DNA of 33,946 nt from Bdellovibrionota bacterium (lineage in GTDB: Bacteria; Bdellovibrionota_C; UBA2361): contig JBILDU010000026.1 in assembly GCA_044352465.1 (NCBI GenBank), forward strand, positions 1 to 33,946, read 5' to 3'. Below, in pieces: positions 157 through 8,696 of this stretch. The position numbers were made by a program, and so were the translations under genes. Numbering within the stretch: position 1 is the stretch's first letter; each line of letters opens with the position of its first letter. The notes under the pieces were generated by a model. It was not told where the DNA came from and did not search any database. It saw only the letters and a program-made list of their open reading frames with translations.

Positions 157-403
157 ATCGAAAATTGCTGTAGGGCCGTGCGAGTTTTTCGTATCTCCCT
201 CGATTCACAACGACTTCACGTCCGCTCCTGGCGTTCCGTGTAGATGAATGAGCGCCGATTTGTGAAGTATCGCCCCGCTCCCGCCCGATACATAAACGCC
301 GGGCTACTCAGTGAGCTGCCGGTCATTCGGTGGTCTTCACGCGATTAAGAGACGGCCCGACGGGCTGGGGTTACTTTGGTTGATAAAAAAAGGGGTGGGG
401 TAT

Positions 404-745
404 ATGGCGGTTCTGGCGCTGCGGGAAAATGAGAATCCGTCTCGGGGGGAGAGTGCGCTTCTAGAGCTTCAGTATCGGCTCGCCGCACGTTCGCCGGTGA
501 GCGCCGAAGACATTCGCAGTGCGGTCGCGGCCGACGCTGCGGCGCTCCGGTCGATGAGCCTCGTCGTACTTACAAAGCTCCTCGACTCGACCGCCATCCC
601 ACTTGAGCACGCTGATATCACCGCGATAGGGGGGCTTATTCGCGATGAGATGGTGAAGCTCCCCCTCGCCGAGCCCGAACTGTTTCTCAATTACGCCCAG
701 GCGGCGGTTATCTGCGTCAAGAGCGCCAGCAAGCGAGATACCTAG
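404..745 (+). CDS. hypothetical protein (113 aa, helical)
   Basis: ATG at 404 preceded by G-rich AGGGGTGGGG. Protein-like composition, no motif recognised. Confidence 0.6.
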   Translation: MAVLALRENENPSRGESALLELQYRLAARSPVSAEDIRSAVAADAAALRSMSLVVLTKLLDSTAIPLEHADITAIGGLIRDEMVKLPLAEPELFLNYAQAAVICVKSASKRDT

Positions 746-1256
746 AGCACGAAACATAGAGTTGTTCACCCGGGCTCTTCTTCGCGTTGCGTCAGGTGCC
801 TGCGCTTCGCTCCGGTGCCCGGGCTGCCGGGCAGCCACTGGTAGCGTGCTAGTACGTGGCAACTAGCTATGTTGCTGAGATGATGAGTTTATGAGAGAGA
901 ATGTCATCGGCATCGCCCCGCTTTGAGAACACCAGGGCGGTATCGGCGTTCAGCCCCCAGTGATTCCCTGGGTTAACCGCGCGGCTCGCACCGCCGAAGC
1001 TCCCCAAGTCCGTTGATGCCTACCGTCGTGTTCCTAGCTCCTACGCCTGGCTTATCCACTCGTATGCCCGGGAAGCTGCATGGCTCCAAACTCCGGGGTG
1101 ATACTTCGCTTATCAAAACAACTCGATCGAGCGAGGGAGTTGCCACGCACCAACATTTGGGGATGTCGCGCCATAAAGGCGCGCCGGAGCGTAAACCCGA
1201 TTGGTGCTCGTCCGCCGAACGTGGGTAGAATCGGGGGCAAGCGGAGTGGGGGAGCG

Positions 1257-1853
1257 ATGACTCAACGAGTGACGATCGGTTGGTGGTTACGGGTGTTTGC
1301 GGTCTGTGCGATTTTTGGGGCAGCGACGGCGGGTGGGGCGGAGCCGGCACCACCGGTGTGCCGCGATGAATTCTGCTTCGCCGCAGAGGCCGATGTCGTT
1401 GGTATGCCCTTAACACTGCGGGGGGTGAGCACCTTTCGATATTGGGGCTTTCGGGTCTATACCGGGGCTTTGTACCTGCCGACGACGGAGACATCAGCAG
1501 CGGCGGTTCTGGGGGAGACACCTAAGAAGCTCGTGCTCAGATACCATCGCAATGTGTCGGTCGATCAATTTGTGGAGAAGTCCGAGGAGGTCCTCGAAGA
1601 ACATCCTCAGTTCTCACCCGAGAAGATCCGTCCGTTTCTAAGCCGCATCAATGCGCTCTATGAGCCGGTGGAGAAAGGGGATGCCTACGCGATCACCTAC
1701 GACCCCATACCAGGAACGCTGAGCCTGTTCTTCAACGAACGACTGTTGGGCCAGATCCGCGATCGCGACTTTGCGCGAGCCTATTTCGGTATTTGGGTGT
1801 CCGATTATTCGGTGAGTAAGAGGTTCACCGACGAGTTGTTAGGCCGGGGGTGA
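1257..1853 (+). CDS. secreted chalcone-isomerase-like (Chalcone_3-type) protein
   Basis: GGAG before ATG 1257, signal peptide, LTLRGVSTFRYWGFRVYTGALY, VEKGD, FARAYFGIW and terminal LLG are characteristic of this family. Confidence 0.85.
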   Translation: MTQRVTIGWWLRVFAVCAIFGAATAGGAEPAPPVCRDEFCFAAEADVVGMPLTLRGVSTFRYWGFRVYTGALYLPTTETSAAAVLGETPKKLVLRYHRNVSVDQFVEKSEEVLEEHPQFSPEKIRPFLSRINALYEPVEKGDAYAITYDPIPGTLSLFFNERLLGQIRDRDFARAYFGIWVSDYSVSKRFTDELLGRG

Positions 1854-2043
1854 CGCGCGCCCTCTCCGGACGTGGTCAAAGGTTGCCCCCTGGAACAGCA
1901 GAATTGGAGATCTGCCGTCGATCTTTTGGGGTATGTCTCCAGGTTGGCGATGGGAGTTCGCCGTTAGATCTCTAGCTCGGTAGAAGCTAACAAGCCGCAG
2001 ATAGGACGCAACTCCCGCCTGCACATCGAGGAGTTCCAGGAGG

Positions 2044-2073
2044 TTGTTTAGGATCTCGAGGTCGGGGTAAAAT
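2044..2073 (+). promoter_or_regulatory. possible sigma70-type promoter upstream of the cassette
   Basis: TTGTTT (2044-2049), 18-bp spacer, TAAAAT (2068-2073). Confidence 0.35.
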
Positions 2074-2109
2074 CATGTGCCGAACTGGGGATCAATACTG
2101 TTAGGCCTC

Positions 2110-2565
2110 ATGGACAGTTCCTCGATCGCTCACCATATAACCGGCACATTTGCCGGCATTTATCCTCTATCCGCTTGGGGTGAGACTTCATTCTTCTACA
2201 ACCCTGGTCGCAAGCTACCTCGAGGCATCTACTTCGCTACGGTCAAGGACAAGGATGGAGACAATGACCGTGCATCCAACCTTCACCGCCCGGGCGTATT
2301 CCGCTTGAACTTTGGCATCAGCAAGCCCACCTATCGCTCTCTGTTCGGGCCGCCACCAGTACGGCCTCCCGCTGGTGGCGTCGTCGATACTGGGCATGAT
2401 TTTGCTACCTTGGATCAGCTCCTGCCCCACCCTGTGTATGGCTGGATGTCATGGGTTTGTGTCCTCAACCCCAGTGCCAGAACATTTAATACTGTCGAGC
2501 CGCTGCTGGCCGAAGCCTATGATCTGGCTGTCTCCAAGTTTGCCAAAAGGGCTTCGTGCGGCTGA
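2110..2565 (+). CDS. DUF6194-like hypothetical protein (cassette ORF)
   Basis: SAWGETSFFYNPG, YFATVKDKDGDNDRASNL, GVFRLNFGI and LLPHPVYGWMSWVCVLNPS match my recollection of DUF6194. Confidence 0.8.
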   Translation: MDSSSIAHHITGTFAGIYPLSAWGETSFFYNPGRKLPRGIYFATVKDKDGDNDRASNLHRPGVFRLNFGISKPTYRSLFGPPPVRPPAGGVVDTGHDFATLDQLLPHPVYGWMSWVCVLNPSARTFNTVEPLLAEAYDLAVSKFAKRASCG

Positions 2566-2566
2566 T

Positions 2567-2611
2567 GCCTCACATATCAGTCGAAAAGCTGTCGCGCCGA
2601 AGCATTTGATT
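2567..2611 (+). other. attC site, left half (R'', L'' and stem)
   Basis: GCCTCAC (R'', one change from GCCTAAC), 5-bp spacer ATATC, 8-nt L'' AGTCGAAA, then stem AGCTGTCGCGCC. Confidence 0.75.
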
Positions 2612-2719
2612 GTAACCGTCCACCCTCACCCGTCCTAGCGGATCTCCTCGACATCTGATCGAAGTGGTGCGTGAGCGAAGTGCTGCTTCCAGAGCCTCGG
2701 GGTGAGGGTGGACGGTTAC
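2612..2719. repeat. 108-bp unit with perfect 20-bp inverted repeats (MITE-like IS66 mini-element)
   Basis: GTAACCGTCCACCCTCACCC at 2612-2631 and its exact reverse complement at 2700-2719. Confidence 0.85.
2635..2706 (-). pseudogene. tnpC: IS66 TnpC transposase C-terminal remnant (23 codons)
   Basis: Minus strand reads LTPRLWKQHFAHAPLRSDVEEIR*, a recognisable IS66 TnpC C-terminus, with the stop 3 bp from the 20-bp terminal repeat. Confidence 0.75.
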
Positions 2720-2805
2720 GGCTTAGAGGCCCTCTGACCGTACGAAATGGCATTTTCCCGGAGAAGCACTAGAGATTTGTGCAGGCTCACTGAGGTCATC
2801 CTTAA

Positions 2806-2829
2806 GTACGGCTGGGGTTGGACGCTTAC
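2806..2829. mobile_element. additional isolated IS66 terminal repeat
   Basis: Reverse complement GTAAGCGTCCAACCCCAGCCGTAC, 19/24 identical to the end at 2612 and starting with the classic GTAAGCG. Confidence 0.7.
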
Positions 2830-2954
2830 GGGAAGGGCACCCCGCTGATCGTCGCCGCGGCCTCCCACCCTGTCAGAGCGCTAAGTGCGGTTACACGAGA
2901 GCCCAGGAGCACGTGTTCCCAGCGGTACGCTCACATGTGGCTTCCGAGCAGGCT

Positions 2955-3635
2955 TTAGTACGACCGTAGCTCACGACCACTTTCGATGGTAACCGACACC
3001 GACGAGCCTTTAGTCTGGATGCAACATTTGCCCTTGCAACCTGCTGTGCACCAGTTACCGCTCGTTGTGCATCCCCCGTTCTCTGAGATATCCCCTTCGA
3101 TCTTGCCACCAGCTTTTTCGCAAGCCTCTTTCAAGTTCGATTTACAAACTTGGTATGCGACGTCACAACTCGGGTCACCGAAGTCACCACCACCTCCGCA
3201 ATTAAGCGGAGTTTTGGGCTCCTTTCCCACAGCGGTCATCTCCGAACACGGATCTTTGCAATAGCATTTGTCGCCAGCCGGGTCGTACGTGCACTTCTTA
3301 TTTCCATTACAGGTCCCGCCGCACTGCGGCGCAGTAGCAGTGGGACAGGTCTCGGCGGGAGGTGGAGGAAGGGGATTGCACTTACAATAATTCGAATCAG
3401 TTGGGTGAACACCGCAGGTGGTACCCGCGGGACAGGTGCCGTTGCACTGACCATTTTCTTTCTTACAGGTCCACTGCCCCGGCTGATTGAGGCACTCACG
3501 TGGGAGAAGCTCCTTGTCTCCGCTCAAGATAGCCTCCTCAAGAAGGGTGGAGCAGTTCGCAACCTCGGGCTGCGCAAATGAGCTGCTGCTGCAGACGAAT
3601 ATCGCGACGAAACCGAGGACGACTTTTTTTAACAT
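2955..3635 (-). CDS. secreted cysteine-rich repeat protein (226 aa)
   Basis: Sec signal MLKKVVLGFVAIFVCSSSSFA, 24 Cys in the mature part, two tandem 6-Cys modules joined by a poly-Pro linker. Confidence 0.85.
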   Translation of the reverse strand: MLKKVVLGFVAIFVCSSSSFAQPEVANCSTLLEEAILSGDKELLPRECLNQPGQWTCKKENGQCNGTCPAGTTCGVHPTDSNYCKCNPLPPPPAETCPTATAPQCGGTCNGNKKCTYDPAGDKCYCKDPCSEMTAVGKEPKTPLNCGGGGDFGDPSCDVAYQVCKSNLKEACEKAGGKIEGDISENGGCTTSGNWCTAGCKGKCCIQTKGSSVSVTIESGRELRSY

Positions 3636-3983
3636 TCTTTACCCCGAAACACTGTTACCCGCTTGCCAGTATAGCTCATCGGATTGGGTCAACCAATCCA
3701 AAAACATCGCTCAACACAACGGAGTCGGTCGAGCCCTTCGTATGCTCGATCGATGAAGATCTCATAGTAAAAACAGACGATTAGTCGAGCCACGCGGTCA
3801 GGCTAGTAGGGTTAAAGTTCACCCACTCTCCCCAGGAACTCAAGCCTAGTTGCGATCGAGAAACTCCATTTATCTCTCTGATTTCCTTCGCGGTGATAGA
3901 GATTTCTCCGCCCCGCACCACGACTAAGAGCAACTTCTCCTTGAAACTCCCATAACACCTAAGAGTTTTGGGGATCGGGTTTT

Positions 3984-4511
3984 ATGCAGATTTCAGGCTT
4001 TCGGCCGCTCGCGGTAGCGGCTTTTCTGGCGCTTATGTCGCCCGCCGTAGCCTGGGGGACGTGCGAAACTGTGCCGAGTGCCGTTGCCGGTACCGAGCAG
4101 ATCCGGTGCGAGTCGGGTGTTGAGTTTAAGATCGTTGCCGCTCGTGTGGATGAACCCGCCGTCGCGAAAATGAAACTGCCCGGACCGTTCGGCACAATGG
4201 AGTTCACCGCGGCCTATGTTCGTCCAGGGGAGCTCGTTCGACTTGTTGGGGTTCAAAAAGGCGCGCGGGGGCCCGCCACACCAAAGCTCTACGCATTCCT
4301 CAAAGGCAATACCGTTCGCTGGATAACCTTGGTACAGACAACTGAAGGTGGAGCAACACGAACCGAGATTCGGCACAATTTAACCGGCGTCACCCGGGTG
4401 GAGCGCATACAGGGCGCGCTCGATCTCCCGGCCCCCACGAATCTCCGACTCATTGAACACCGTGTTGAGGCACCTCTCCCGGAGGCGGTCTATACGCGCC
4501 TGGGGCTGTAG
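3984..4511 (+). CDS. putative secreted hypothetical protein (175 aa)
   Basis: Signal-peptide-like N-terminus (RPLAVAAFLALMSPAVAWG), beta-strand-like sequence pattern, Cys pair near the mature N-terminus. Confidence 0.7.
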   Translation: MQISGFRPLAVAAFLALMSPAVAWGTCETVPSAVAGTEQIRCESGVEFKIVAARVDEPAVAKMKLPGPFGTMEFTAAYVRPGELVRLVGVQKGARGPATPKLYAFLKGNTVRWITLVQTTEGGATRTEIRHNLTGVTRVERIQGALDLPAPTNLRLIEHRVEAPLPEAVYTRLGL

Positions 4512-4531
4512 ACTAACGGCGTAGTGAAAGC

Positions 4532-4870
4532 TTAACCGGTATCGATGAGCCACATCGTTGATTGTTTCATGCCGACACCCTCAAACCCAAATCCACAAAT
4601 TATTGAAGCGAGTTCACGTCGCCCATCGGCGCAGCGTACTTCGAATCTTCCCCGTTCAAGGTGTTTCGCAAACACGCACCATCCGGTTCGATCCCAGAAT
4701 ACTCCCTTGAGGAGTTTACGGCGGCGGTTCACAAAGACGTAAAAATCTCCCGTCAATGGATCGGCATCCAGATGCGCTTTTACCGCTGCTACCAGTCCAT
4801 CAAACGAGCACCGCATATCGATCGGCTCGCCGTACGCAAAGATCTTCTTCGGTTCTCCCCGCCACCACAT
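4532..4870 (-). CDS. tnpB: IS66 family accessory protein TnpB (Orf2)
   Basis: PIDMRCSFDGL, DPLTGDFYVFVNRRR, WDRTGWCVFAKHLERGRF. ATG overlaps the tnpA stop (TGATG). C-terminus looks diverged. Confidence 0.9.
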   Translation of the reverse strand: MWWRGEPKKIFAYGEPIDMRCSFDGLVAAVKAHLDADPLTGDFYVFVNRRRKLLKGVFWDRTGWCVFAKHLERGRFEVRCADGRRELASIICGFGFEGVGMKQSTMWLIDTG

Positions 4871-5121
4871 CACTCACTCCGTACTCGAAGGGCCGTACCG
4901 TCTGGGAACACGAACTCGAGGGTCGTTTTCGTCCGGGTGGGTGGGGTGACCTCTGAAAACGCTCCGGTAAGCCGTTCCTGTTGAAGCTAGTATTGGAGTG
5001 TCGAGACCGAGACACCGGCGCCTTCACAAAAAGCGCGCTGCGTCTCCCCGCTCGCTCGGTACCGGGTAAGCATGGCTCACCGCCGGTCAGGGATTAATCG
5101 GTTCCTTCGCTCCTCGCTCAT
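4870..5121 (-). pseudogene. tnpA: IS66 family TnpA (HTH) with two in-frame stops
   Basis: MSEERRNRLIPDRR*AMLTRYRASGETQRAFCEGAGVSVSTLQY*LQQERL...LEFVFPDGTALRVRSE*. Stops at 5077-5079 and 4987-4989, the second at the conserved YW tryptophan. AGGAGG upstream. Confidence 0.85.
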
Positions 5122-5210
5122 AGTCCTCCTTAAAAGCTATCGGAGGGACTTCTCGCATGGGCGGTAGGGGCGCGGGAAGAACGGTGCGGGATGGGCGGTT
5201 ACACTTGATT

Positions 5211-5256
5211 TGATCATGTTCGAATTGGTACGACACTTTTCGCTGAAGCGTTATCG
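5211..5256 (+). other. attC site, right half (stem, L', R')
   Basis: GGTACGACACT, 7-nt L' TTTCGCT (5238-5244), 5-bp spacer GAAGC, GTT core at 5250. Reverse complement TCAGCGAAAAGTGTCGTACC pairs with 2577-2598 leaving two extra bases. Confidence 0.75.
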
Positions 5257-5423
5257 CTTGCGGAAGTTTCTATAGCCTTGGCTCCGCGAGAGGTGAATCT
5301 CATGGTCATTTGAGCAACACGACCAGTTGCCGCCTACCAGCATTCGAGCCGTATTGGCATCGCCACGATCGCATCGGAAGCCTTCCGCGAATCCTTGCTC
5401 ACGAAGGAGGCATCTAAATCCAA

Positions 5424-6233
5424 ATGGATATTCCCCCGGAGAACTCCTCCCCCTTTGGAAACGGCGTCATACGCCCAACAGCGCCTTTCCAATTCCAGGT
5501 GGTTGACTACGTTCCACAGCTCCGTCTTGGACTTCGGCTCGAGTGTGACCCGACTAATTTCATCGATCGCTACATCCTCGCAAACGGAATCTGGGAACCC
5601 CTCGTGTTGAGCGCGCTACATGCGCTCGTGAAGCCGGGAGACGTCTGTGTCGACGTTGGTGCGAACGCCGGCTACCTCTCGCTCGTCATGGCGGGGCTGG
5701 TCGGCGCTGCGGGTAAGGTTCTCTCGTTCGAACCGAATCGAGCGATCGTACCCAAATTTAGGAGAAATCTCGAGTTGAATCCAAGCCTACAGTCGAGGAT
5801 CGAGCTCCACACTACGGGACTTGGGCGAGAGGCTACTACTATGTTTCTTGCGCCCGACGAGAGCGAGATCGTGGGGAACGCGAGCCTCGTATCCTTGGCT
5901 GGAGCGATAACGACCGAATCCATCAGAGTGGAAACGCTCGACTCGCATCACCTCACGCGGGTTGACTGTATGAAGATCGATGTGGAAGGTATGGAGCTCG
6001 ATGTATTGATGGGGGCATCAAAGACCATCGCTGTATCGAGACCGGTCATCGTGTTCGAAACGTTACGAGCGCGGCCCCCCGAGCATCATCTCGTCGTGGC
6101 CAACTACCTGCGGGAGTTCGGCTACGGCATCTATTCCGTTGATTTTGAGGGGAAAAAATTTAAGCCGATAACGACCGCTCTGTTTCCCCAAGAGGACACC
6201 TACGCGATCCATCCAGCTCGGTTCAAACTATAA
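5424..6233 (+). CDS. FkbM family methyltransferase
   Basis: VDVGANAGYLS, VLSFEPN, MKIDVEGMELDVLMGA, RPVIVFE. AAGGAGG upstream. Confidence 0.92.
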   Translation: MDIPPENSSPFGNGVIRPTAPFQFQVVDYVPQLRLGLRLECDPTNFIDRYILANGIWEPLVLSALHALVKPGDVCVDVGANAGYLSLVMAGLVGAAGKVLSFEPNRAIVPKFRRNLELNPSLQSRIELHTTGLGREATTMFLAPDESEIVGNASLVSLAGAITTESIRVETLDSHHLTRVDCMKIDVEGMELDVLMGASKTIAVSRPVIVFETLRARPPEHHLVVANYLREFGYGIYSVDFEGKKFKPITTALFPQEDTYAIHPARFKL

Positions 6234-6334
6234 ACCGTTGAGGGGGAGCGGGGCATGCCTCGGCGCATGATCCCCACAGATTTGTCCTCTCGGGCTATAT
6301 TCTTTGTGGCGTCGCTTCCACCAAGTGCTCGAGC

Positions 6335-8527
6335 CTACGCCAAATTCTCCACCATAATCTCCGCGATGTCGCGCACCTCAAGGGCACCTTCGCGGTTCGT
6401 GAGTTTTACCCCGTCCTCGAGCATCTGCATGCAGAAGGGGCAGGCGGTGGCGATCCGGTTTGAGCCGGTTTCGGCGGCTTGGTCGACCCGGAGGGCGTTT
6501 ACCCGCTGACCTTTCTTCATATCCATGAAGAAGTGTCCGCCGCCTGCGCCGCAGCACATGCCTTTTTCGCGGCTTCGATCCATCTCGAGGATCGGGAGCC
6601 CCGTAGCGCGCCGCACGGTATCGCGGGGCGCTTCGTATTCGTTGTTGTAGCGGCCGAGATAACACGGGTCGTGCATCGTGTAGGTTTTCTCTGAATTGGG
6701 TTTCAGCGCGATCTTCTCTTCAGCCACGAGTCGCTTGAGGAGCACTGAGTGGTGGATGATCTCAGGACTCTTGCCTTCGCCGAGATTCCCAAAGTCGGGG
6801 TAGTCGTTTTTGATCGAGTTAAAGCAGTGAGGGCAGTTTGCGACGAGGGTCTGAAACCGGATCGATTTCAACGTCTCGATGTTTGATTTCGCGAGGGTCT
6901 GAAAAAGGTTCTCTTCCCCGAGTCGGCGCGCTGGATCGCCGGTGCACCCTTCCGCGGTGCCAAGAATCCCAAACGAAAGCCCCGCTTTGTTCATCAACGT
7001 CACCAGAGCACGGGCGATCTTTTGCTTTCTCGGATCAAATGCGGAGACGCAGCCGACCCAGTAGAGGTAGTCAACCGAATCGCCGGGCTTAAGGATCTTT
7101 ACGTTCAGCTCCTCGAGCCACTTAATCCGATCTTCTGGTGCACCGTACGGATTCCCCCGATTCTCAAGCGCCCGGAGCGTTGGTTGAGCCTCTGCAGGGA
7201 TCTCGCCCCGCATGAGCGCCATGTTACGCCGGTTTCCTACGATCATGCTGACATGGTCGATGCCCACCGGGCATACCTCCACACACGCCATACAGGTGGT
7301 GCAAGCCCAGAAGACATCGGGGTCCATCACATCGCCGGCGACTGTATCGTCAGCGGAACGACCGAGCACCCGCGGGGTCTCACGCACGAGCTCGTTTGCA
7401 CCCCGGTACGCTCCGTTAACGGAGTAACCCTCCGTGGCTTTTTCAACCCCACTCGAGGGAAGGAAAAAATCAAGGGTAAGAGCTTTGTCCACTGCTCGCA
7501 GGGGAGGGGGCAGTTTCGATGGGGCGAGTTTGCCCTCCGCAGCGAGAGCAAGGGCGTGATTCCGGGTATCGAGTACCATCCACTTCGGCGAGAGCGGCTT
7601 TCCGGAGATATATGCCGGGCAGTTATCTTGGCACCGACCACAACTTGTACATGCATCGAGGTCGAGGAGTTGTTTCCAGGTATAGTCTTTTATCGATCCA
7701 AGCCCGAGTGAAAACTCTTCGCCCGATTCCATCATCTTCTCAAGGTCGCCCGGTGACTGAAGCTGCGCCTTGCCACGGCCGGAGTCCCTGAAGTACAGGT
7801 TCGCTGAACTCGCCACGATGTGAAAGAACTTGGTGTACGGTGCGATCGCGATAACCGTGAAGACGGTGATCGTGTGGAACCACCATGTGAGGAAGTGGAG
7901 AAGTTTCGTACTCTCGGGGGAGAGTGCCCAGAAAAATTTGGCAAAGAGAAGTCCGACCGGGGACCAGAGGCGCCACGGGTCGTTTGTTGCGTGGATCCGC
8001 AAACCCTCGAGCACGAATCCTTGGACGCATAGGAGTACCAAAACGGTGAGCCCGAAAATCTCAGACGGGCGGCGATGCACGAGATCGGCCTTGGCGATGT
8101 AGCGTCGGTGAGCGAAAAGAGCACATCCGATAATCAGCCCAAGTCCAAAGAGGTCACTCAGGAGTGTGACGATGAGGTAGAAGTTACCCTCGTAGATCCG
8201 AATACCTAAGTCGTGGTCGATAAAGACCATCGTCGTCGTAAAAAGGAGGACTAAGAATCCAACGTAGATCAGGGTATGTGCTGCTGCCGGCAGGGGCTCG
8301 CGGACGGTGCCCCGTTGGAAAAGGCCGTGGGTGAAGAGGCTTTGAAATCGTTCAAGCCATCTCCCGGTGCGTTCCGGCGCGGGGCGACCGGAGGCCCAAA
8401 GCTCTGCGTGGCGAAAGACTCCCGCAAATCCGATGATGAGAGCGACCACCATCAGGGAATACATCACGACGACGTTCCCGAGGCTGCTCACGTTCCACAT
8501 GATCTCCCTTGTCGCCACTCCGCTCAT
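6335..8527 (-). CDS. membrane-bound Fe-S oxidoreductase (FadF/HdrD-like: TM domain, two 4Fe-4S motifs, two CCG domains)
   Basis: CTSCGRCQDNCP, CTTCMACVEVCP, WVGC, GCTGDPARRLG, CPHC, HDPCYLGR, CCGAGGG, ACPFC. Start placed at ATG 8527 behind GAAGGA. Confidence 0.9.
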   Translation of the reverse strand: MSGVATREIMWNVSSLGNVVVMYSLMVVALIIGFAGVFRHAELWASGRPAPERTGRWLERFQSLFTHGLFQRGTVREPLPAAAHTLIYVGFLVLLFTTTMVFIDHDLGIRIYEGNFYLIVTLLSDLFGLGLIIGCALFAHRRYIAKADLVHRRPSEIFGLTVLVLLCVQGFVLEGLRIHATNDPWRLWSPVGLLFAKFFWALSPESTKLLHFLTWWFHTITVFTVIAIAPYTKFFHIVASSANLYFRDSGRGKAQLQSPGDLEKMMESGEEFSLGLGSIKDYTWKQLLDLDACTSCGRCQDNCPAYISGKPLSPKWMVLDTRNHALALAAEGKLAPSKLPPPLRAVDKALTLDFFLPSSGVEKATEGYSVNGAYRGANELVRETPRVLGRSADDTVAGDVMDPDVFWACTTCMACVEVCPVGIDHVSMIVGNRRNMALMRGEIPAEAQPTLRALENRGNPYGAPEDRIKWLEELNVKILKPGDSVDYLYWVGCVSAFDPRKQKIARALVTLMNKAGLSFGILGTAEGCTGDPARRLGEENLFQTLAKSNIETLKSIRFQTLVANCPHCFNSIKNDYPDFGNLGEGKSPEIIHHSVLLKRLVAEEKIALKPNSEKTYTMHDPCYLGRYNNEYEAPRDTVRRATGLPILEMDRSREKGMCCGAGGGHFFMDMKKGQRVNALRVDQAAETGSNRIATACPFCMQMLEDGVKLTNREGALEVRDIAEIMVENLA

Positions 8528-8696
8528 CGTACGGTTCCTTCGTTTGCAGTCGTTACCGGGTGAGGCCGCGCCTAATCGTCGTACCCCATTAAACCACCCC
8601 CCTCGGCGGGAGCGAGCCCATCGTGCCACACGGATGACCGTTCTGGAAAGTTAGCTATTTTATTCAAAGGGTTATCAGGGGCGCTCGATACCTTCG

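Follow-up and report, generated by a model that had tools for sequence, protein, structure and literature searches.

We analysed a window of 33,946 nt, the entire contig C124 (JBILDU010000026.1) of the Bdellovibrionota assembly GCA_044352465.1, a genome of 3.13 Mb in 170 contigs with a completeness of 94.9%. The host is probably a freshwater (lake) bacterium of the Bdellovibrionota, from an integron-rich order. Near the left end of the window lies a promoterless DUF6194 gene, followed by the two halves of a 91-nt hairpin with the architecture of an integron recombination site (attC). Gene and hairpin very probably form an integron cassette, and the hairpin is divided near its apex by a 2.6-kb insert bounded by ends of an insertion sequence (IS) of the IS66 family (Table 1). 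Such a split hairpin had been proposed in an initial annotation made from the sequence alone, and all of its features were recovered here.

Table 1 Features of the split attC site, its insert and the surrounding islet, in window positions (ORF, open reading frame).
Feature	Position	Strand	Remarks
Variable islet with the cassette	157..6334		6.2 kb; at this place an intergenic spacer of 77 bp in the sister genome G001
5' core site GTTAGGC, crossover G/TT	2100..2106	+	TTAGGC is the complement of canonical R'' GCCTAAC
Cassette ORF, DUF6194, 151 aa from ATG 2110	2110..2565	+	PF19694, E 3.9e-55; stop codon 2563-2565
attC 5' half	2567..2611	+	R'' GCCTCAC (2567-2573), spacer, L''/5' arm, target 8-mer ATTTGATT (2604-2611)
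tnpC-side IS66 end	2612..2706	-	Inverted repeat (2612-2636) and last 20 tnpC codons (2647-2706)
Three extra IS66-type termini	2700..2894		2700-2719, 2810-2829, 2878-2894; all tips rightward
Single-copy DNA in place of the tnpC body	2707..4604		1898 nt where ~1.5 kb of tnpC is due
Orphan ORF, 226 aa	2955..3635	-	25 Cys in repeated C-x-C / C-x3-C patterns; signal-like hydrophobic N-terminus
Orphan ORF, 175 aa	3984..4511	+	Signal-like hydrophobic N-terminus
tnpB (IS66 Orf2)	4574..4873	-	TnpB_IS66 match; 88% identity with G001 in a 100-aa alignment, similarity lost in the last ~10 residues
First 23 tnpC codons, overlapping tnpB	4603..4671	-	By comparison with the G001 copy
tnpA pseudogene	4873..5121	-	80/83 residues as in G001; two in-frame stop codons
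tnpA-side IS66 inverted repeat	5178..5202	-	
Second target 8-mer and attC 3' half	5203..5256	+	ACTTGATT (5203-5210), then 3' arm, L', spacer, R' (5211-5256)

The cassette consists of the DUF6194 gene and the 91-nt site. The hexamer TTAGGC (2101-2106) of the core site in front of the gene is complementary to the cassette's own R'' box, GCCT(C)AC, and the ORF occupies the space between them, which agrees with the TTRRRY boundary of a cassette. At the other end R' reads GTTATCG (5250-5256), its GTTAT being usual in the sites of this lineage, and the cassette ends with the G at 5250. R'' and R' are not complementary to each other; complementarity of R'' to the cassette's own start, and not to R' at 5250, is what is expected of a linear cassette. 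The longest ORF would begin at a GTG at 2077, upstream of the cassette boundary (2100/2101); homologues begin at an ATG equivalent to that at 2110.

A search of 61 genomes of the order found the DUF6194 gene in three, this one among them, and in none of four family members, a distribution that fits a mobile cassette. Proteins with 81–83% identity came from records titled Synechococcus, Bdellovibrionota, Moraxellaceae, Rubrivivax and Betaproteobacteria; at this level of identity, the Proteobacteria have the gene in canonical cassettes. We inspected the flanks of 13 of the 80 homologous loci, namely the eleven best-ranked ones plus L045 and L107. Four of the 13 (L030, L031, L033 and L061) carried a canonical 60-nt attC two letters past the stop codon, reading GCCTAAC-AATTC-ATTCAAGC ... 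GCTTAAC ... GTTAGGC. The R'' of the window has the same offset from the stop codon (13/16 letters aligned by eye). Upstream of the gene, similarity to the window started at the TTAGG of a GTTAGG core in L028, L030 and L031, and at ATTAGG in L029. The closest homologue from the same order (L002/L029) has kept the canonical R''-spacer-L'' (GCCTAAC AATTC ATTCAAGC) downstream of its DUF6194 gene and an upstream core ATTAGGC, with no matching 3' half and no hit by our attC model R1 (described below). This locus, too, looks like a decaying cassette.

The inserted element (2612-5202) starts with GTAACCGTCC at 2612 and ends with GGCGGTTAC at 5202, the two ends being 73% complementary over 26 nt. The 8-mers on either side are identical in seven of eight letters and form an imperfect duplication; by our own arithmetic, an identity of at least 7/8 at fixed positions has a chance of ~4e-4. 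Inverted repeats starting with GTAA and an 8-bp duplication, here 7/8, are those of IS66. The same end sequence closes other IS66 copies, both in this genome (C97, C150 and C153) and in the sister genome G001, and 8-bp duplications were seen at three other IS66 copies of the order. The reference copy in G001 has a tnpA of 83 aa and a tnpB of 107 aa, followed by tnpC. The window element is 95% identical to it, with 88–96% for tnpA and tnpB. The 3' end of tnpB is lost, the protein diverging from about residue 90 and the DNA homology to other copies stopping at 4605.

The metagenome contig L156 holds a full IS of 2286 bp, with no recognisable duplication and with a tnpC of 536 aa, the only uninterrupted one seen. 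Its last 20 tnpC codons align to 2706-2647, beside the end at 2612 (E 0.011). Related IS66 copies in the sister genome and in this one also hold tnpC sequence, which is frameshifted or truncated in the assemblies. With no working set of tnpA, tnpB and tnpC, the element in the window is a defective IS66 derivative. In one sister copy (L117, G001:C85) the tnpC frame runs without a stop into sequence unlike a transposase (~2100-2380), with no second end; this could reflect a truncation or an assembly chimera at a repeat.

An allele without the insert is present in the environment. Contigs of four public runs (X1, X5, X6 and X8) were aligned to positions 1500-6400, and contigs from X8 and X6, which belong to different studies, passed from 2605 straight to 5205. 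This skip of 2599 nt has an ambiguity of 6 nt and equals a join of 2611 to 5211. The contig with the joint was 644 nt long in X8 (534 + 110 nt, with 8 + 6 differences), and reached 37 nt beyond the joint in X6. Since 2599 nt correspond to the element plus one 8-mer, the two halves were once contiguous. The placement of the joint also indicates that the undivided target read ATTTGATT. Target join, IS ends, duplication and empty allele are all documented at this locus.

In X5, one contig covered 1500-2931 with two differences, so that in an independent sample the cassette is linked to the IS end and to the first part of the foreign DNA. X6 also held a more abundant strain, ~93% identical (66 differences in ~1000 nt), in which ~1864 is joined to ~5274 with unknown letters between. 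This strain appears to be without the cassette and the 237 nt before it, the boundaries being unreliable. The public runs therefore contain three alleles: no cassette (with uncertain boundaries), cassette with intact site, and cassette with insert. They bear out the three layers that had been proposed, that is, a chromosomal islet, a cassette and an IS66-derived element. Parts of 2812-4615 were without cover in X6 and X8, from which we draw no inference.

For the rebuilt site, 2612-5210 was removed and 2567-2611 joined to 5211-5256, giving 91 nt. It folded into a single long imperfect hairpin of -15.1 kcal/mol (DNA parameters; z = -3.0). Shuffled versions folded at -7.9 +/- 2.4 kcal/mol, and 3 of 500 were as stable. 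With 50 nt of sequence flanking the join on each side, z was -4.1. The two unpaired bases of the initial annotation were confirmed as a t (2581) and a c (2589), 8 nt apart. Every small bulge is on the 5' arm, where an attC palindrome has its extrahelical bases. The layout of the lineage's sites is shared: three to five unpaired letters after R'', four to five pairs, a bulge, five to seven pairs and a second bulge. Counted from the R'' triplet, the first bulge falls on the 8th letter; most sites of the lineage have it on the 9th or 10th, and L124 also on the 8th. The box scheme originally drawn for the site holds for the architecture and for the GTT of R'. Its R'' has CAC in place of the near-invariant AAC, and the complementarity of R'' and R' that it implied does not exist.

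The terminal loop comprises nt 45-47 of the site and the duplicated 8-mer nt 38-45, so that the insertion took place at the 5' side of the apical stem and reached into the loop. The initial annotation had put the duplicated 8-mer at the terminal loop. It does touch the loop, but it belongs mainly to the 5' apical stem, and its two copies agree in seven of eight letters.

Twenty attC sites of the lineage, from arrays beside integron integrase (IntI) genes and from the homologous cassettes, were used to build a covariance model with 17 pairs (R1). On 16 control loci R1 recognized 23 sites at E<=0.1, 20 of them outside the training set, with 19–49 bits. On the uninterrupted window it gave nothing better than E=4. 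For the rebuilt site we used a home-made covariance-type score, the sum of pair and single-column log-odds from the same alignment, with up to two indels allowed. The 20 training sites scored 32.8–58.6 (leave-one-out) and 20 other real sites 24.5–46.4. The rebuilt site scored 16.6. Random 91-mers of the genome scored -31.6 +/- 8.5 and none of 6000 reached this value. In the rebuilt islet, both strands considered, it was the only GTT-anchored candidate above 8.

Several findings weigh against an attC, and some of them favour the alternative of a terminator-like palindrome, or of one resembling a repetitive extragenic palindrome (REP). The R'' consensus RYYYAAC ends in AAC, found in 20/20 model sites, and the window box reads CAC, at a cost of 7.7 bits. 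Scoring the excised join as attC, as had been suggested from the start, places it far above random sequence, yet each of the 40 real sites scored higher. When 300,000 strand-bases of the genome were scanned freely, nine windows at seven loci scored at least 16.6, about one per 43 kb; because these seven loci reach it, the score is convincing only with the place fixed beforehand. R1 on the two halves as separate stretches returned only noise. The stem and loop of the site showed no significant similarity to the sequence downstream of the gene in the closest Bdellovibrionota homologue: 179 of 1000 shuffles did as well for the whole site, and 224 and 602 of 1000 for the separate halves. Searches of the genome, at its completeness of 94.9%, with the IntI family model and, using tblastn, with two IntI proteins of the lineage found no IntI. 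R1 in the window and the home-made scan in the rebuilt islet detected no second attC, and no attI was detected beside the cassette.

Such a palindrome is nevertheless improbable. R'' and the 5' core site are placed as in the homologous canonical cassettes, and hairpins of the same shape with random letters reached 16.6 in only 1 of 3000 cases. There is no T-run past the stem, and the rest of the genome holds nothing similar to either half. As the homologous cassettes carry GCCTAAC at the equivalent place, the CAC is a decay by one letter. Descent and architecture thus support a decayed attC.

The most probable history, to which we assign roughly 80%, is that of a stray, decaying cassette whose attC apex was split by a later, now defective IS66 element. 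A single cassette would have been stranded in a strain-variable islet, and the AAC of its R'' mutated to CAC. Later an IS66-family element transposed into the AT-rich top of the hairpin, duplicating the 8-mer ATTTGATT. Further insertions of IS66 ends, or rearrangements, inside tnpC may then have left the three extra termini and the 1.9 kb of foreign DNA.

This foreign DNA has a base composition of 0.553, the same as its surroundings. No Pfam family was recognized in its two ORFs. Among 90 genomes of the order, the 226-aa ORF had no relative and the other one weak match, and the 175-aa ORF matched itself alone among 5.8 billion clusters. A second copy of 2707-4604 was found neither in this genome nor in 90 other genomes of the order, and read depth in the four runs pointed to none. 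In run X1, positions 2484-2811 and 4616-5271 had a depth of 65–307x, and 2812-4615 a depth of 6–8x, like the flanks. The stretch 2612-2706 stood at 65–76x, against ~8–10x for its neighbours. Other contigs depart from the window sequence exactly at 2707 and 4605. The terminus at 2700-2719 is a perfect inverted copy of 2612-2631. IS66-type ends are stacked elsewhere as well, with GTAAGCC directly before GTAACCG in L156 (194-207), and GGCTAC followed by GGTAAGC near 6675 of C149. IS66 elements may tend to insert beside each other's ends.

We lean slightly towards an insert that decayed in place over a finished composite that jumped as a unit. In the second case, the 2.6-kb unit would be a mobile insertion cassette, a non-autonomous IS66 derivative with cargo, which moved as it is with TnpC provided in trans by full-length copies. 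This we regard as possible but doubtful. The unit has IS66 inverted repeats at its two ends and a single 7/8 duplication around them. Related copies hold tnpC sequence, frameshifted or truncated in the sister genome and in this genome and uninterrupted in L156, and contigs of the runs continue into tnpC at 2707 and 4605. An allele with a full-length IS at the attC site was not seen in the four runs. In contrast, the cargo is without a second copy or a match in other genomes of the order, its depth is that of single-copy flanks while the IS ends are repeated, and the same-facing extra termini at 2719, 2829 and 2894 resemble the debris of later events more than a designed cargo. The "cargo element" of the initial annotation is a gutted IS66 with extra internal ends, and since no second copy was found, its mobility as a unit is hypothetical.

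We also considered a chimeric metagenome assembly across IS66 repeats. The IS portion from 4605 to 5202 (598 nt) occurs in many copies and interrupts contigs in each of the four runs, and the IS66 copy on G001:C85 runs into an unrelated reading frame. No run contig listed bridged the junction 4604/4605 by at least 31 nt, which counts against our reconstruction; the right-hand link of the insert depends on the assembly and on the argument from the duplication. On the other hand, the contig of X5, an independent run, reaches from the cassette through the IS end and across the 2707 junction into the cargo, and in X1 and X5 the single-copy cargo is unbroken between 2653 and 4610. As the flanks are the halves of a single target and share one duplication, both IS ends must belong to one insert. 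A chimera is therefore very unlikely.

The initial annotation had further suggested an IS66 subgroup that prefers attC loops. An insertion at the top of a 91-nt hairpin would agree with a general targeting of attC sites or hairpin loops. Mobile elements inserted in attC sites were reportedly treated by Tetu and Holmes in 2008 and by Post and Hall in 2009. The end pattern of this IS66 lineage is rare, with 12 places in 5 of 124 genomes of a phylum sample, plus the metagenome contig L156. R1 found no attC at E<=1 in the surroundings of related IS66 ends and genes, 19 loci with 47.5 kb in total. In a weight-matrix scan for half-sites, none of 13 one-sided IS66 flanks scored above the window's own halves (5.3 and 6.2), values that 7–10% of random 90-mers attain as well.

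Searching with tnpC gave 42 matches in 28 of 91 genomes. Examination of 20 of these regions yielded seven inverted-repeat pairs (eight with L156), three of them with clean duplications (L189, L191 and L194). The five pairs without duplication, four of them from the order (L190, L195/L170, L200/L171 and L204) and the fifth in L156, were excluded from the target test. None of the three clean targets lies in a hairpin (z = -1.15, -0.72 and 0.03), and as attC the rebuilt targets scored -1.7, -0.3 and -4.9; all three belong to other IS66 subgroups than the one in the window. The flanks of other insertions shared no base composition. The sample is small and partly from other subgroups, and from the window's own subgroup one insertion was rebuilt with both flanks and a duplication.

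The proposed preference was therefore not borne out, and a general targeting of attC or hairpin loops is most improbable. Other element families do home to attC, namely the IS1111-attC group and group IIC-attC introns, according to the parts consulted of PMC12444791 (also PMC3001079 and PMC11187229). In the portions seen of the literature mentioning both attC and IS66, we found no report of an IS66 inside an attC; PMC4859172, as far as consulted, merely lists both as features of one genome. The landing at the hairpin apex is best read as chance, perhaps aided by leaving the gene intact. It is hardly to be expected that a rare IS66 lineage picks the extruded or single-stranded tip of attC-type hairpins and that its gutted derivatives ride into cassettes. 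If such structure-based targeting were true, integron cassettes would be carriers of transposon cargo.

The islet around the cassette was delimited by comparison with the sister genome. Contig C138 of G001 matches the window in 1-156 and 6335-8676 only, and because these flanks are just 77 bp apart there, 157-6334 represents a 6.2-kb islet. It is bordered by a terminator hairpin on one side and by the 3' end of a conserved CCG/4Fe-4S oxidoreductase gene (Pfam, 6335-8629) on the other, and sits between convergent conserved genes. Besides the cassette, it contains unassigned ORFs, a chalcone-isomerase-like gene and an FkbM-type methyltransferase gene (Pfam). A second GTTAGGC (1838-1844) falls inside the end of the chalcone-isomerase-like ORF. 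It suggested a preceding cassette without ORF (1845-2100), which we rejected, as R1 and the home-made scan detected no attC there.

IntI (TIGR02249) scored over the cut-off in 25 of 61 genomes of the order. On other contigs of the genome R1 found four attC sites (C101:33609-33707, C101:34397-34452, C86:2227-2283 and C71:17645-17699), with 44.8, 33, 30 and 22.7 bits, the C71 site being weak. The two sites on C101 enclose ~690 nt and look like a small attC cluster, with no integrase gene in the assembly. Small reverse-strand ORFs there could be a toxin-antitoxin pair, which is a guess from the raw sequence. At the locus of the DUF6194 cassette, neither IntI or attI nor a minimum of two attC marks an integron or attC cluster. 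With no other attC in the islet and no IntI found, the cassette is lone and stranded; it may have been placed at a secondary GTT site by IntI or have come in as part of a larger piece. A lone attC outside an integron presumably falls into the SALIN/CALIN classes of IntegronFinder. The idea that the insertion froze the cassette is largely moot, as neither an IntI in the genome nor a partner attC or attI upstream was detected. The interrupted site, its loop filled by 2.6 kb and its R box mutated, is very unlikely to fold and recombine.

Compared with known systems, the locus resembles an integron cassette in its promoterless ORF bounded by TTRRRY and a complementary R'', in the imperfect palindrome with extrahelical bases on the top-strand 5' arm, in the GTT of R', and in a gene that occurs in canonical cassettes elsewhere. 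It differs by the CAC of R'', a short distance from R box to bulge, the interruption of the site, and the lack of a detected attC or attI neighbour or IntI. The insert shares with the IS66 family the inverted repeats, the 8-bp duplication and the similarity of tnpA and tnpB. Unlike typical members, it has lost nearly all of tnpC, has two stops in tnpA, and holds 1.9 kb of unrelated DNA and three supernumerary termini.

Mobile insertion cassettes and passenger-carrying "transporter" IS are terms of the IS literature for units which, like this one, enclose ORFs unrelated to transposition between IS repeats and a duplication, with no working transposase. Here, however, no second copy or sign of movement was seen, and remnants of tnpA and tnpB are kept. 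IS1111-attC elements and group IIC-attC introns are likewise mobile elements inside attC sites. They use a DEDD transposase or a reverse transcriptase and occupy a fixed position and orientation in many attC, with no 8-bp duplication, whereas the window element is a DDE IS with TnpA and TnpB and represents a single event.

The split site is real and well documented, but the insertion of one mobile element into another is in essence a known and ordinary kind of event, and no new mechanism is revealed. With it, IS66 joins the element families seen inside attC sites, and an attC proves recognisable across an interruption of 2.6 kb. The locus offers a population-verified example of how a stray cassette decays outside an integron, by R-box mutation and then IS invasion, while the allele from before the insertion is still circulating.

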